Shown here: positions 16,477 to 58,015 of the stretch, piece by piece
Layout of the letters: every line of letters begins with the position of its first letter
Position numbering within the stretch: position 1 is the first letter of the stretch
DNA from: Somniosus microcephalus
Taxonomy: Eukaryota
DNA length: 64,000 bases
Assembly: GCA_052327205.1 (NCBI GenBank)
Contig: CM126213.1
Location: forward strand, 111,538,001-111,602,000
Reading direction: 5' to 3'
Program-made: the position numbers and the translations under genes
Notes under the pieces: generated by a model
Told to the model about the DNA's origin: nothing
The model's database searches: none
The model's input: the letters and a program-made list of their open reading frames with translations, nothing else

Positions 16477-17674
16477 ATGGGAACCATTTATACCCTCTCA
16501 GCCTGGTCCTCAGAATCGGAGGAAGAGCAGCCGTGGCAGCAGCAGAATGAGGCACAACAGCAGCAGCAACAACAGGAGTGCCAAACTCCTCCTCACCCAC
16601 CTGATGCTGCACAGAGCAGAGGGCATCAGCGCAGGGCTGCACCTCACCGCAGGAGATACCCCCAACACAGGGTTTACAGGCAGAGGATGAGCTTCCTCAA
16701 CATGACTGAGCAGCAGTGCCAGAGGAGGCTGAGACTTTCGCGAGAGGTAGTCGCTGACATCTGCGCAATGCTGCACCAGCACCTGGAGCCCAGAGGAGCG
16801 GGTGGACACTCCTTACTAGTGGCTGTCAAAGTCACCACCGCCCTCAATTTTTTTGCTTCAGGGTCCTTCCAGGGACCATCAGCAGCCATCAGCAGCATCT
16901 CCCAGTCAGCTGCACACAGTGGCATCACGCAGGTTACCAATGCCCTCTTTGCAAAAGCGCACAATTACATCCACTTCTCCATGGATGAAGCAAGTGTAAC
17001 CACACGTGCGGTTGGCTTTGCAAATATGGCAGGCTTGCCAAGGGTGCAGGGCATCGTAGACTGCACATGTGGCCATTAGGGCACCCCATCACAACCCAGC
17101 TGTATTTGTGAACCGCAGGGGCTTCCACTCTCTTAACATCCAGCTGCTGTGTAACCACAAGAAGAACATTATGCATGTTTGCGCCAAGTTCCCTGGCAGT
17201 TGCCATGACTTGTTCATCTTGCGGCAGTCTACTGTGCCTCAGCTCTTCAATCCGCCAACCCAACTTTCCGGATGGCTACTTGGAGACAAGGGCTAACCCC
17301 TGAAGACATGGCTAATGACACCATTGAGGAGGCCATCAAACGAAGCAGAGGAGTGCTACAATGCGAACCACTTTTCCACCAGAGCCATCATCAGCTTGCT
17401 CAAAATGCGGTTCAGATGCCTCAACAGATCAGGTGGAGCCCTACAGTACTCACCAGCCAAGGTCTCCATAATCATCGTGGTCTGCCGTGCCCTGCAGAAC
17501 ATCGCACAGCAGTGTGGCTTACCGCTGCCTGAGGAACAAGTGGCTCAGTGCACAGCCTCCTCCTCCTCCTCCTCCTCCTCAGAGGAGGAGGTGGATGTGC
17601 CAGATCCACCAGCACGCGAGCACATTGCTGGCCGTGATGCAAGGGATGCACTAATCCATGCCAGATTCACTTAA
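16477..17674 (+). pseudogene. Harbinger DDE transposase (HARBI1-like), disrupted
   Basis: Motifs [49 protein letters not shown] and LKMRFRCL. Frameshift near 17067, TAA at 17294-17296 (G-Y-P to G-*-P), and the catalytic Glu region is missing after TRAII (~17392). Confidence 0.9.
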
Positions 17675-17936
17675 GTTTACGAAGCTAACACTGTGGCTGC
17701 CACCTTCTTAACACACCACTCACAATCTGTACAATAAACTGTGGGTTCCTATCACTCTCACCACCATCATTACAGATGAAAGGCACCCTGACACCTCACT
17801 GTGACACTTCCATTTCTGGGTACACATAGGCCAATTCTTTGAATGTTTGCCATTGCATTTCTTTATTACAATTGGAATGTCGATCATAATCTTATATATG
17901 TATTACATCAAAACACCCAAATGACTACCCTTGTGA

Positions 17937-19841
17937 CTATTTGTGTGTTAACTTTCTATTACGCGTGCTTCTACATGGTGCTTCCCCTGTGGCTTCAGCA
18001 GATGTGGAGGCACCTTGCTTACTTTCATGCTGCTCCTGCTTCGACACCTTTGGCAGGTGTCCTCTGGGATTGGGAGCCTGGGAGGGCTTGGCAACAGTCT
18101 GCTCCTCCTGTGGCTGTGCAGGGGCTGAGACGGCCATCTCAGTTGGGTGAGGAATCTGGGGCTCTGACCGAGGGCTCCACAGTGGCATGGGAGTGTGAGT
18201 GCTTGGAGAGGAGCCCACACTTCCTTGTTGTCGACCACCAACATCCCTCTCATGGGTCGCCCGCACTTCACTGCTAGCAAGTGGCTGGAGAGTAACCTGC
18301 TGCACCTTAGTGGAGCCATGAGGACCTGTCTCTGTACTGACAGTCCTCATAACGGGGACAGCCATGTGTCTCTGCTCAATAGCTGCCCATCTATCCTCCA
18401 TAGCAGGCCATCTATTTAGAAGAGTCACCATGCTCTGTTGAGTGTGGCGACTTATGTCGTCCAAGGAGGTTGCCACTCTCTCCATGGTGGCACGTTCATG
18501 TGCCATTGCCTCCACAAAGGCAGTGCTCATGTTTGAGATGGACTCCTCCATTCTCTCCACACTCACAGTTACGGTGGATGCAAACCCTGTCAGAGAGTCC
18601 TGCACTTGTTGCTAAAGTTCCAGCACTGCTCTCTTTCTGGATGGTCCCAGAGGCACAGGTTCCACATGCAGTTGAGCAGAGCTCGGAGCGTTCAGCACTC
18701 TCTGACAAGGACTCTCCACTGCTGTCCCTGTCTCCACCATCTGCTGATGCTCACTTGTGAGCTGTGATACACCAGGTGACAATACTAATCTATCTCGCGA
18801 ATGACCCACCAAGGTGCATGTCTCTGCGCTGGTGCTGGGTGCGTTCAATTCTGCTGACACTACGCCTTCAGAGATTGCAGCTTCCTCTGAGGAGTCTTCC
18901 GGCTCTTCCTGCTGGACAGTGAGGAGGGGGGCTCTCGATGGTCCTGTGGGGGAGTAAAGGCATGAGTTAGACATGTGATATTAACGTAGCAGGTACATCG
19001 AATTTTGCAGATGATCATAAGTCAATCTGTATGAACATCAGATGCCATATCAGTCACTCATGCAATGTAAATAAGAGGGCTGCAAATCTATTCTGTCACC
19101 AGCTTGCTCTACTGCACCCGTCTGACCGTCGCCCACTTCCAGATCCTCAGCACCTCCGACGATGTCGAGAGCAGCCTCCTCAGCGGTGGTCAAGTGGGCA
19201 ATCAAAGGTGGCCCTCCTCCTGTCCTCCCCCTCTCCCTCTTATTATGGGCTCTCTTTTCCTGCAATGGGGGACACAAGTGGCGTTTGAGTGAGAATGTTG
19301 GAGTGAGTGTAGAGAATCCATAGCATAGATGCTTAGAGGGAGACAAAATGGAGTGAGGTGCCAATACCAAGGGCCCTCCCTGTGCATTTTTAGTTGTTGT
19401 CATTGCATAACAGTGATAGTGAGTGTGAGGGGTGCATAGTAGAATAGTGAAGTGATTCTGTACATAGAGAAAGAGGGATGGTTAAGGGTGCAAGGGATGT
19501 AAGGGTAAAGTGGGATGTGCAGGAGTAGTTTGACAATGCAGAGTGCTGGTGGTGAGAGGAGATGGGGAGCAGATTGAAGGTAAGAGTGATGTTATATTCA
19601 CTTTTGCTGAGCATAGCAGATCATTGAACCTTTTCCTGCACTGAACCCAGGTGCGACCACACAAAGACCTGGCGCTCACCTCCTCAGCAATCTGCAGCCA
19701 GGCTGCCTTGGTTTGATGAGGAGGCTTGCTCCGTCCGTTTGAGGGGAACAGTACCTCTTGGCACCCTTTCACTTCCTTCACAAGAGTATGGAGGGAGTCA
19801 TCATCGAATCTGGGAGATGCCTTGGGTCTTGCAGCAGTCAT
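17937..19841 (-). pseudogene. Harbinger Myb/SANT-like DNA-binding protein gene, 3 exons (19841-19602, 19259-19100, 18943-17937), one premature stop
   Basis: Exon 1 encodes PRFDDDSL...AWLQIAEEVS...RTWVQCRKRFNDL (Myb/SANT) and exon 2 encodes RERGRTGGGPP. The GT-AG junctions (AAA|gtgaat, ttgcag|GAA, G|gtgaca, cacag|GA) join in frame to 1407 nt, with an in-frame TAG at 18612-18614. Confidence 0.85.
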
Positions 19842-40583: not shown

Positions 40584-41813
40584 TTAGTGTATTAGAGGGT
40601 TTGAAGAGGGCCCCTGGTTTTGATGTGTGAAGTAATCAGAAAGTCCTCCAGAAAGTCCTGTGGAGAAACTTGGCAAAGAAGGTCTTAGAGACTCACAGGG
40701 GAGAGTTGAAGGCGCCTGTGGAGACGTGGAGGACGCTGTCCTAGCCGTCATTGAAGTGCTGCTTTGAGAAGTCATTGAAGGGTGCGGAACATGAGGGAAA
40801 AAGTAACTCGTCTGTCCTGCCAGCAGATTCACCGAGCAGGGGTTTAACGAATATGTGCCTGAGCACGGAACAGACAAACCACACGGCACCGAGGCAGCCA
40901 AGGCGGCTGCAGCCGTTAGGTGGTGGGTGGCATAAGGAATCTCTCCGTTAACAAGTCTATCTACACTTAGCCCATTTGATGTTGGAAATGAGTGGTTGTT
41001 TGCCAGAGAGTTCTGAGTTAACACCGAGCTGTAGGACATCGGGTGGCTTGGGTAAGGTGAGGTGGTTCCATTATAACTTAAGGTACTGCTGGCTCGGGGA
41101 TGGTGGAGGGATAGGAATGGAGAAACAGGCCAATATAAGGAACCTGCCCTATCCATAAATGTCAGTCCAGTCGAGGTGAGGCGCGCTCCCCGCTTGAAAG
41201 CTAACTTTGCTCTCGATGTTGTGGATCTCCTGCGAAGTTTCCCCGTGGTGCCACCTATAAAGACGTCGTCACTAGATGGATCCAACATCCAGTAGTTCCC
41301 CTTCCCAGGATCATCATAGTGCCTCGGAACTTTTACGAAACACTTGTTCAGACTCAAATTGTGTCTAATAGAGTTTTGCCAGCCTTGCTTGTTCTCTCTG
41401 TAATAAGGGAAGTTCTTCATGATAAACTCATAGATGCCATTCAGTGTCAGTCGTTTTTCTGGACTCTGTCGGATTGCCATCATGATCAGGGCATTATAAC
41501 TGAACGGAGGCTTTTCATATTTGCCATTTTTCTTCTCCCCTTCCTTTCCACCGTCCGCTTCTTTGCCGTCGGCCTTCTTCTCTTCCTGCTTCTCCTTGTC
41601 TTCGGCGCAGGGCGGCTCCGCCGAGCTGCTGTCACTTTTGCTGAGAATATTTTCAGACTTGGACTCCGCCGTTGGCAAAATGTTTTTGTCCTCCTCTTCG
41701 GGGGCCGATCGGTGACGGTTGTCACTTTGCACCGCTTCGGGCACCAGGCTGTTTATGCTGAACGATGATTTCGGAATCATTTTCACTTCTTTCTTATCTC
41801 CCATGTCCAACAT
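40584..41813 (-). CDS. FOXG1: Forkhead box protein G1 (brain factor 1), intronless, 409 aa
   Basis: N-terminus [29 protein letters not shown] (eh1 motif FSINSLV), forkhead domain [31 protein letters not shown]...[23 protein letters not shown]-terminus [27 protein letters not shown] at 41813; the ORF-track start at 41840 is a GTG. Confidence 0.98.
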
Positions 41814-41874
41814 CACACACAGGTAAAATTGCAGCAGCACAGTTGGACCGCAATCGCAAACGCTGGCAACTCAT
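41794..41874 (-). other. Overlapping upstream ORF, 26 aa [26 protein letters not shown]
   Basis: ATG at 41874 is 61 nt upstream of the main ATG and out of frame. The frame reads through Met1 and Met4 to TAA at 41796-41794. Confidence 0.7.
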
Positions 41875-41894
41875 GTAGTAAAAAAAAAGAGCCA

Positions 41895-41947
41895 CTACTT
41901 CATGTTCTTAAAAACACGTCGAGCCGAGCCAGCTTGCTGCAATTCAT
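41895..41947 (-). other. Two further short uORFs: MNCSKLARLDVFLRT* (41947-41900) and MK* (41903-41895), sharing an ATGA overlap
   Basis: Minus strand GAAATGAATTGC...AGAACATGAAGTAG. Whether they are transcribed depends on the unmapped TSS. Confidence 0.45.
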
Positions 41948-41949
41948 TT

Positions 41950-42830
41950 CGGACCCTGGGCGCTGGGCTCCAAACACTCGCTGCAACCTTTTCACTCGCT
42001 GCCCAATCGCAGCCCGCACCGCGCCTGTGCGTCGGCCCGGCCCGCAGCCAATCAGCGCGGCGCCCCGCCGCCTCCGCGGAGGGATACAGCCAAAGGGCGG
42101 GAGAGGGGGGGAGGAGGAGGCCGCGTCACTCCGCCTCCGGGCCCACTCTCTCTCTCACCATCGACTCTTCCAATCCCACAATACACATGCATTACATTCA
42201 CCACTCCGCCCGGATAATAGCGTTCGGTACGTCAATATTTTATGTTATTGTTGAAAGTTTGTTTATACTTTCAAGGAAGGGAATTAAAATAGAGGAGGGA
42301 GAGGCGCGGTACTACTTTATATCTCCGAGGGCGCAATCCCAGTTTCCAAAAAAACCCAATAATCTGAAAACTGGTTCGGAATTCGGGATTGATTTATTTG
42401 TACCGGTTTCCCAATGATCACACCCTATTCCCGAGTTGGCGTGTGTTTTTTTGGATGTGCGGGAGTGAGGAGAACTTGGAGTTGATGTAGTGCTGCTGGA
42501 AGTTGTCCTGTGGCAGTCGGACAACAACCGCGGCGAGCGCGGGACCGCTGGAAGCCCCGCCTGATCCGGAGCGCTGCCTCCTCAATCCTCACCCTGTCCT
42601 GTCCAGCCCAGCCCTCCTTACCCTGTCCTGTCCAGCCCAGCCCTCCTCACCCTCGGCCCCTCACACACACACACAGACCCAAATATCCGCGCAATGTGCC
42701 GAGTCCATTAAACCTCCGCATCATTCGCTCCGATTCTTTTCCTGTCAGTCATCTCGGAACCATGATGGCGGATGCGGGCAATCATTTCCAGATTGATTAT
42801 AATTTTATATCGGCCCAAATACAATAAAAT
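41950..42830 (-). promoter_or_regulatory. FOXG1 CpG-island promoter
   Basis: GC/CpG-dense DNA with CCAAT at 42003 and 42048 (plus strand), GC boxes (CCCCGCC 42063, GGGCGG 42095), a half-CRE CGTCA near 42124, and no obvious TATA box. Confidence 0.8.
42586..42653. repeat. 29-bp tandem duplication (~2.3 copies) in the upstream promoter
   Basis: ACCCTGTCCTGTCCAGCCCAGCCCTCCT(T/C) starts at 42591 and again at 42620. Confidence 0.9.
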
Positions 42831-55348: not shown

Positions 55349-58015
55349 CATAGAACCATAGACATTTACAGCACAGAAGGAGGCCATTCGGCCCATCTTG
55401 TCCCTGCCGGCTGACAAAGAGCTATCCAGCCTAATCCCACTTTCCAGCACTTGGTCCGTATCCTTGTAGGTTACGGCACTTCAAGTGTATATCCAAGTAC
55501 TTTTTAAATGTGATGAGGGTTTCTGCCTCTACCATCCTTTCAGGCAATGAGTTCCAGACCCAACCACCCTCTGAGTGAAGAAAATTCTCCTCAAATCCCC
55601 TCTAAACCGCCTACCAATTATTTTAAATCTATGCCCCCATCTGCTAAGGGAAATAGGTCCTTCCTATCTCCTCTATCTAGGCCCCTCATAATTTTATACA
55701 CCTCAATTAGGTCCCCCCTCAGCCTCCTCTGTTCCAAAGAAAACAACCCCAACCTATTCAATCTTTCCTCATAGCTAAAATTCCACAGCCCAGGCAACAT
55801 CCTTGTAAATCTCCTCTGTACCCTCTCTAGTGCAATCACATCATCCTGTAATGTGGTGACCAGAACTGCACACAGTATTCTAGCTGCGGCCTAACTAGTG
55901 TTTTATACAGTTCAAGCATAACCTCCCTGCTCTTACATTCTATGCCTCGGCTAATAAAGGCAAGTATCCCGGATAGAGAACTGGTTGACAGACAGGAAGC
56001 AAAGAGTTGGAATAAACGGGTCTTTTTCCAAGTGGCAGGCAGTGACTAGTGGGGTACCGCAGGGATCAGTGCTAGGACCCCAGCTATTCACAATATATAT
56101 TAATGATCTAGATGAGGGAACTAGATGTAATATCTCCAAGTTTGCAGACAACACAAAGCTGGGTGGGCATGTGTGCTGTGAGGAGGATGCCGAGAAACTC
56201 CAGTATGATTTGGACAGGTTGGGTGATTGGGAAGATGCATGGCAGATGCAGTATAATGTGGATAAATGCGTGGTTATCCACTTTGGTGGCAAAAACAGGA
56301 AGGCAGATTATTATCTGAACGGCAATAGATTTGGAGAAGGGGAAGTGCAACGAGACCTGGGTGTCCTTATGCACCAGTCGCTGAAGGTAAGCATGCAGGT
56401 GCAGCAGGCAGTTAAGAAGGCAAATGGTATGTTGGCCTTCATAGCAAGAGGATTCGAGTACAGGAGCAAGGATGTCTTGCTGCAGTTGTACAGGGCCTTG
56501 GTGAGACCACACCTTGAGTATTGTGTGCAGTTTTGGTCGCCTTATCTGAGGAAGGATGTTCTTGCCATGGAGGAAGTGCAGCAAAGATTTACCAGACTGA
56601 TACCTGGGATGGCAGGAATGACATATGCGGAGAGATTGGGTTGATTGGGCTTATATTCACTGGAGTTTAGAAGAATGAGAGGGGATCTCATTGAAACTTA
56701 TAAAATTCTAACAGGACTAGACAGACTAGATGCAGGAAGGATGTTCCCGATGGCGGGGGAGTCCAGAACCAGGGGGTCACAGTCTAAAGATAAGGGGTAA
56801 GCCATTTAGGACAGAGATGAGGAGGAATTTCTTCACCCAGAGAGTGGTGAACCTGTGGAATTCTCTACCACAAAAGGCAGTTGAGGCCAATTCATTAAAT
56901 ATATTCAAGAAGGAGTTAGATATATTTCTTAAGGCTAAAGGGATCAAGGGATATGGGGAGAAAGCAGTGACAGGGTACAGAATTTGGATGATCAGCCATG
57001 ATCTCATTAAATGGCGGAGCAGGCTTGAGGGGCCAAATGGCCTACTCCTGCTCCTATCTTCTATGTTTCTATGTTTCTATGTATGGCTTCTTAACCACCT
57101 TATCTACCTGTCCTGCTACCTTCAGGGATCTGTGGACATGCACTCCAAGGTTCCTCTGATCTTCTGCACTTCTCAGTGTCCTACCATTTATTGTGTATTC
57201 CCTTGCCTTGTTAGCTCTCCCCAAATGCATTACCTCACACTTCTCCAGATTGAATTCTATTTGCCACTGTTCTGCCCACCTGACCAGTCTATTGATATCT
57301 TCCTGCAGTCTGCAGCTTTCTTCTTCATTATCAACCACACAGCCAATTTTTGTATCATCTGCAAACTTCTTACTCATACTTCCTACATTCAAGTCCAAAT
57401 CATTGATACCACAAAAAGCAAAGGACCCAGAACTGAGCCCTGCAGAACCCCACTGGAAACAACCTTCCAGTCACAAAAACACCTTTCGACCATTACCCCC
57501 TGTTTCCTGCCTCTGAGCCAATTTTGGATCCAACCTGCCATTTTGCTTTGGATCCCATGGGCTTTTACTTTCATGGCCAGTCTGCCATGCGGACCTTATC
57601 AAAAGCCTTGCTAAAATCGATATAGACTACATCAAATGCACTACCCTCATTGACCCTCCTTATTACCTCCTCAAAAAATTAAATCAAGTTAGTCAGATAC
57701 GACCTTCCCTTAACAAATCCATGCTGACTGTCCCTGATTAATCCGCGTCTTTTTAAATGAAGATTTATCCTGTCCCTCAGAATTTTTTCCAATAATTTTT
57801 CCACCACCGAGGTTAGGCTAACTGGGCTGTAATTACTCGGTCTATCCCTTTCTCCCTTTTTAAACAACGGTACTACATTAGCAGTCCTCCAGTGCTCTGA
57901 CACCACACCTGTAGCCAGAGTGGATTGGAAAATGATGTTCAGAGCCTATGCTATTTCCTCTCTTACTTCTCTTAACAGTCTGGGATACATTTCATCCAGG
58001 CCTGGGGATTTATCT
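55349..58015 (-). mobile_element. 5'-truncated CR1 LINE (outer; segments 55349-55970 and 57081-58015)
   Basis: Minus-strand RT pieces WRTANVVPLFKKG...SQHGFVKGRS, GVLQGSVLGPLLF, KFADDTKI and LERVQRRFTRM. The two segments join seamlessly (AGTATCCC|GTATGGCTTC). Confidence 0.92.
55971..57080 (+). mobile_element. 5'-truncated CR1 LINE (inner, antisense insertion)
   Basis: ORF 55985-56644 has SGVPQGSVLGPQLFTIYINDL, SKFADNTKL and LVRPHLEYCVQFWSP. The 3' end is GGCCTACTCCTGCTCCTAT followed by (TTCTATGT)n. Confidence 0.95.

Follow-up and report, generated by a model that had tools for sequence, protein, structure and literature searches.

Overlapping upstream open reading frames (oORFs), that is, uORFs whose AUG precedes the main start, lies out of frame with it and meets no stop ahead of the coding sequence, are a well-known class of translational control element and are present, in the accessible text of one survey, in 15% of human 5′UTRs (PMC11057154). 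The oORF of STN1, described for yeast and human, represses the main ORF, 10-fold in yeast (PMC6089452, available portion), while ATF4 combines a 3-codon uORF1 with an overlapping uORF2 (PMC11058473, available portion). The start codons of uORFs are usually better conserved than the peptides they encode, as stated in the accessible part of PMC7889888. A gene for which such control would be of consequence is FOXG1, which is sensitive to loss as well as to duplication and causes disease when its dose is halved or duplicated (PMC6882862, as far as its available text goes).

The DNA considered here is a window of 64,000 nucleotides from Somniosus microcephalus (GCA_052327205.1, contig CM126213.1, positions 111,538,001 to 111,602,000), the minus strand of which carries a single-exon ORF of 409 aa (40584..41813; Met1 at 41813, Met4 in strong context at 41804, Met12 at 41780). 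A Pfam search finds a Forkhead domain in it, the best 7 of 139 protein matches are FoxG1 of sharks and rays with 88-97% identity over residues 1-60, and a tree of 17 proteins places it amid chondrichthyan FoxG1, separate from two paralogues encoded in the same genome; judged by these similarities, the main ORF encodes a cartilaginous-fish FoxG1. The paralogues (L004, 1501-2607, and L005, from 1501; 368 and 372 aa) keep the spacing of Met1, Met4 and Met12. Each also has an upstream AUG, at -160 and -145, that is open and lies in the frame of the shark FoxG1 uORF; neither was accepted as support for that uORF, given that shuffles yield such an AUG at rates of 37% and 20%. Alignment of the paralogue leaders to the FoxG1 leader was rejected as well, not being significant (scores equalled in 95-328 of 500 shuffles).

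The original prediction described a uORF overlapping the FoxG1 start, and in all its geometry this was reproduced: the ORF (41794..41874, minus strand) encodes 26 aa in frame -1 to FoxG1, starts at -61 with an AUG of weak context (U at -3, A at +4), reads through Met1 and Met4, and has a stop that ends at +19, 13 nt short of Met12. In its sequence it thus agrees with the definition of an oORF given above. Because shuffling the leader 3000 times also yields an open AUG of this frame in 25% of cases, presence of the uORF alone is not beyond chance and the case depends on conservation.

Mammals were compared via translated records (P0041, from macaque, and the mammal-type P0121) and via ORF coordinates reported for mouse. 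Residues ahead of Met1 are present in 10 records among the 120 of 139 FoxG1 matches listed. Two of the records, macaque P0041 and the probably chimeric, mammal-type P0121, start with Met and match the first 15 codons of the shark uORF (41830..41874, minus strand) at 12 of 15 residues each, with scores of 61 and 62 that none of 200 shuffles equalled; this is similarity across distant taxa of the kind by which conserved-peptide uORFs are recognized. Between shark and the mammal records, Met1 of the uORF is unchanged, and variation is seen at residues 2, 6 and 7. Contrary to frame -1, the macaque model joins the uAUG in frame with FOXG1. The idea that mammals normally have an N-terminal extension in frame was nevertheless rejected, for it occurs in one record only, from a garbled model; P0041 is the sole match of 1345 candidates, and elsewhere, in a second GC-rich stretch, its sequence is garbled too, from which we infer that the join is a one-base error of the model.

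The mouse evidence comes from the accessible rows of a RibORF table (PMC13396407, Suppl. Table 7), where one ORF at 412:586, with the CDS at 566, lies in frame -1, is open from -154 and ends at +20, which is the shark stop. Among the rows listed there, CUG starts of mouse Foxg1 lie at -154, -143, -138 and -135, a spacing of 11-5-3, and the shark leader has CTG or TTG triplets at +21, +32, +37 and +40 of the uAUG, with the same spacing. Searching both strands of the 64-kb window turns up this four-site pattern a single time, and shuffling the leader reproduces it in 2 of 20000 cases, TTG having been permitted at the first site post hoc; the strict three-site pattern arises in 40 of 20000. If the spacing is taken as homologous, codon 1 of the mouse uORF would lie at -175, with an insertion of 114 nt (38 codons, 3n) relative to shark and a peptide of about 64 aa. 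That indels between uAUG and Met1 should be multiples of three, as proposed originally, agrees with this putative insertion and with the complete lack of gaps in four of four shark relatives; the retention of frame is one deep contrast, expected 1 time in 3 by chance.

As to use of the AUG, none of the four distinct leader starts in the 8 of 45 mouse Foxg1 extension and overlap rows listed is an ATG. The same source applied a lenient RibORF cut-off of 0.3, called all three Foxg1 frames and dropped ORFs of less than 30 nt. From its accessible rows, ribosomes occupy the mouse Foxg1 leader, and initiation at this particular AUG is putative (PMC13396407). Scans of metagenomes for vertebrate FOXG1 leaders gave 0 matches; there were 182 pattern matches, none of which was confirmed. 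Taken together, the conservation of the uORF as read from these records is beyond chance; the uAUG likely persists in mammals, and the uORF is likely shared by sharks and mammals.

The situation is different in spiny-rayed fishes. In guppy-type fishes (8 records, one of which derives from an unspliced contig call), Met1 is preceded by an open stretch of 92 residues. Its colinearity with the shark leader is seen in one block with a score of 40, a value reached by 1 of 200 shuffles, and in two shorter anchors that follow in order, neither being significant singly. By back-translation, all three frames are free of any possible AUG from -148 to -52 in five guppy-type records (those tested of the 8) and from -145 to -52 in halibut; both AUG-free spans include the place matching the shark uAUG. 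It therefore looks as if the overlapping AUG was lost in guppy-type fishes and halibut, provided that the models have no breaks and the anchors are correctly placed. The original claim of retention across jawed vertebrates thus stands for the AUG and the N-terminal peptide in P0041 and P0121 and for a mouse ORF with the same frame and stop, and falls for several spiny-rayed fishes, in which the AUG is impossible. The guppy-type extension of 92 residues, in frame with FoxG1, is nearly invariant, and medaka has one of 32 residues (P0118, P0140-P0145, P0147, P0112, P0124, P0125); they are possibly a lineage-specific longer FoxG1 isoform, or merely conserved leader.

On a shorter time scale, the leader was compared with those of four shark relatives, the table of differences being complete for X1 (20 of 20 listed), nearly so for X2 (34 of 35) and less so for X8 and X14. 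X2 has 2 listed changes in 162 nt of leader, as opposed to 22 in 119 degenerate third positions of the CDS (p 2e-7, or 4e-4 in the worst case, with all 6 unlisted letters placed in the leader). The two changes are spread evenly, 1 in 61 sites within the uORF and 1 in 101 outside. Within the uORF none of 19 degenerate third positions is changed in the shark relatives, and the sole change listed is a missense one, Ala15 to Val (n = 1). The constraint, as far as these alignments reveal it, acts on bases and leaves no peptide signature. Synonymous changes are scarce also in codons 1-28 of FoxG1 (41730-41813), with 2 of 25 degenerate sites changed in X2, compared with 13 of 24 in the forkhead domain and a likewise low 7 of 70 in codons 29-98; the nucleotide constraint of the leader may extend into the start of the CDS.

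Since the whole leader is fixed at the nucleotide level in shark relatives, a functional micropeptide, one of the two roles proposed originally, becomes unlikely. That the uORF encodes such a peptide, stalling the ribosome or acting in trans, would fit the 12 of 15 N-terminal residues common to shark and mammal records, the more so as merely 1.82% of human uORFs of at least 10 codons keep their peptide in fishes (PMC7889888, accessible part). Yet the third positions of the uORF are as unchanged as its flanks and the lone change alters a residue, the shark peptide has 26 aa and the presumed mouse one about 64, the start of FoxG1 imposes the C-terminal residues, and searches of Pfam and Atlas gave no family match for the peptide; we consider this explanation very improbable.

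As conservation of the leader is no lower beyond the uORF than within it, the AUG may instead be a passenger in an element selected at the nucleotide level, such as a splice acceptor, a protein-binding site or a promoter-proximal sequence, and be rarely used or have no effect. For an acceptor there are indeed candidates. A pyrimidine tract that includes 9 consecutive T (41880..41891, minus strand) lies directly upstream of the uAUG, and codon 4 of the uORF is a CAG (41863..41865, minus strand), use of which as 3′ splice site would place uAUG and mini-uORF (see below) in an intron; 12 of the 19 nucleotides before the CAG ending at 41863 are pyrimidines, a GAG at 41870 coming earlier in shark. 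In four runs from shark relatives (the RNA origin of which is a guess) no splice joint or loose end was found at the CAG. For mouse, the accessible rows of PMC13396407 comprise at least 15 in-frame extension rows for the transcript with a 565-nt leader and at least 7 for the other one, and among the rows listed the 565-nt-leader transcript is without the uORF that ends at -199. From these row counts and coordinates an acceptor probably lies between -198 and -155 in mouse, the codon-4 CAG being the likely site, and the spliced isoform likely lacks both the uAUG and the mini-uORF. Besides these neighbours of the uAUG, the passenger explanation would accommodate that the block downstream of it may partly persist in fishes without the AUG, a 3-residue match which is not significant alone. 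A 3′ acceptor, however, needs no AUG between pyrimidine tract and AG, and neither the keeping of Met amid variable residues nor the preservation of frame and stop over the putative 114-nt insertion is what a passenger would be expected to display. All in all we judge it unlikely, albeit of real weight.

Two further AUGs precede the originally described one in the leader, at 41947 (-134) and 41903 (-90). The first opens a uORF of 15 aa (41900..41947, minus strand), the AUG of which is apparently not retained in guppy-type fishes, where the matching block has Ile in place of Met. The second opens a mini-uORF that consists of AUG, a Lys codon and a stop (41895..41903, minus strand), has A at -3, and ends 20 nt ahead of the overlapping uORF and 81 nt ahead of Met1. 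The mini-uORF is compatible with 9 records of spiny-rayed fishes, as a His-Glu pair able to hide its AUG is present in 9 of 9 reaching it. For mouse, coordinates in the accessible part of PMC13396407 suggest an in-frame stop, that of the uORF ending at -199, 23 nt ahead of the presumed uAUG, a distance close to the 20 nt in shark.

The order of these parts, a very short uORF and then an out-of-frame overlapping one, is that of ATF4 (PMC11058473, available portion), and it is conceivable that they form a conditional relay of the same type, in which output follows the level of eIF2 ternary complex and the ratio of spliced to unspliced leader. The compatibility of the mini-uORF with the nine fish records and with a stop in mouse would suit such a relay. 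The gap in question, however, is just 20 nt in shark and apparently 23 nt in mouse. Between uORF1 and uORF2 of ATF4 it is about 85-90 nt, and by the rules of reinitiation 20 nt is probably too short. With a gap so far below that of ATF4, the uAUG would be skipped after translation of the mini-uORF, stress or none. Further, the mini-uORF apparently persists in fishes without the overlapping AUG, and in the mouse study the Foxg1 leader ORFs showed no significant change with activity, with padj of 0.62-0.80 for overlap and uORF rows among the rows listed (PMC13396407). A relay of this kind appears doubtful to us.

What we favour, at somewhat better than even confidence, is that the overlapping uORF acts as a leaky-scanning brake which would lower FOXG1 output by a fraction, the peptide being a likely by-product; it corresponds to the rheostat of the original prediction. 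Part of the scanning 40S subunits would start at the weak uAUG, pass Met1 and Met4 and yield no full-length FOXG1, and the remaining ones would leak past it to Met1 or to Met4 in its strong context. The AUG-Lys-stop would capture some subunits, which would resume scanning too near the uAUG to use it and, by reinitiating at Met1 or Met4, would soften the brake. Splicing to the CAG that follows the uAUG would remove mini-uORF and uAUG alike from the transcript. Extending this, one may imagine an isoform-switchable dosage module predating the split of sharks and mammals, with an AUG-Lys-stop gate and an overlapping uORF that starts within a 3′ splice site; the brake would then act on unspliced transcripts and spare spliced ones. 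As a whole, such a module is unlikely. Were it real, the intact allele in FOXG1 syndrome could be made to give more FOXG1 by blocking the uAUG or by favouring the splice, and variants in the leader could cause FOXG1 disease.

The uAUG is covered, without gaps down to Met1, by contigs of four of four related organisms (compared over 41400-42250). These contigs represent 4 of 23 listed runs, none recorded as RNA, so that their RNA origin is a guess, and they cannot show the transcription start. They reach upstream to 41888, 41933, 41975 and 41981, and three are about 2.2 kb long; the ends at 41975..41981 (minus strand), from two studies (X2 and X8), give a weak hint of a transcription start near 41980. 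Located 20-75 nt beyond 41980 are two ATTGG boxes (42003..42055, minus strand), which we take to be reverse CCAAT boxes; one of them is shared with both paralogues, as CTGATTGG. X14 has separate, shallower contigs upstream (42136-42250 and beyond; depth 24-28 versus 131 in the main contig), which may reflect a longer leader or a divergent transcript. Further upstream, a 29-nt tandem repeat (42586-42653, 2.3 copies) has a donor-like site per unit on the minus strand and, by this sequence feature, is a candidate for the end of an upstream first exon. The annotated leaders of mouse Foxg1 are 565 and 1603 nt long, as given in the accessible part of PMC13396407.

Several other features of the region were noted. 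RNA structure of the whole leader is unremarkable (z -0.24), and an Rfam search gave a sub-threshold match only. A three-way junction is predicted for 41934-41860, with the AUG of the mini-uORF in a stem and the uAUG at the junction (z -2.7; 6/500); it was set aside, as it was picked post hoc and z -2 is reached by 1 of 22 scan windows. The GTG preceding Met1 (41814-41816) creates a TGA at -2, which shuts the third frame at the start codon; this GTG is common to both FoxG paralogues, Val is the last residue before Met1 in 9 of 10 extended protein records, and one mouse Foxg1 row in the accessible part of PMC13396407 ends at +1. A plus-strand ORF of 171 aa (41902-42417), antisense over leader and promoter, has no Pfam match and is probably due to chance in GC-rich DNA. 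Elsewhere in the window, two facing ORFs of about 200 aa lie in a GC-rich island (16477-18551); they have no Pfam match, and the first presumably is a fragment resembling a Harbinger-type transposase. Likewise without Pfam match is an ORF of 294 aa (56730-57614), which we assume to resemble read-through of a LINE-derived repeat.

No account of a FOXG1 uORF was found in the literature, as far as titles and the beginnings of abstracts tell, with few subscription papers and with the ESUCA, TransCODE and h5UTR lists outside the scope of the search. FOXG1 was not found in the supplements of Sandmann 2023 (PMC10032668), PMC4890304, PMC6089452 and PMC12859497, nor in 7 of 8 supplementary files of PMC11685710, and the available parts of two FOXG1 reviews and of a Ribo-seq preprint on FOXG1 progenitors do not mention a FOXG1 uORF. 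The mouse frame -1 ORF is already contained in PMC13396407, where, in the accessible part, it appears as unremarked table rows only. A brake built into the leader would give a direct handle on the dose of FOXG1, as a target through which the intact allele might be made to yield more protein, and would mark a place to seek non-coding variants in FOXG1 disease. Retention of a uORF from shark to mammal is rare, judging from the small share of human uORF peptides that reach fishes in the available text of PMC7889888, and the compact shark leader, with 61 nt from uAUG to Met1 versus about 175 in mouse, offers a simple natural test construct.

Compared with the described systems, all of them as represented in the available portions of the respective sources, the locus is closest to STN1: in both cases an out-of-frame upstream AUG opens an ORF ending within the main CDS, and the FOXG1 one would be expected to lower the output of a dosage-sensitive gene. 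Repression by the STN1 oORF has been measured, whereas the FOXG1 uORF is known from sequence; it has, in addition, a weak AUG, a block conserved from shark to mammal, an adjoining mini-uORF and a probable splice acceptor. With ATF4 it shares the succession of a short and an out-of-frame overlapping uORF, and three in-frame AUGs lie near the main start; in contrast to ATF4, the gap is 20 nt, and the overlapping AUG is apparently gone in some fishes. Like the conserved-peptide uORFs of ESUCA (PMC7530721, the accessible main text of which does not name FOXG1), it has a peptide recognizable across distant vertebrates; unlike those, there is no sign of Ka/Ks < 0.5 (with one change listed) and its length is not kept. 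Finally, in being a developmental-gene leader fixed as nucleotides near the start codon, it is similar to the hyperconserved vertebrate 5′UTRs (bioRxiv 10.1101/2020.06.29.165878), which are defined by at least 250 nt of 60-way PhastCons element in mouse, the likeness of FOXG1 to them being one of constraint among shark relatives only.
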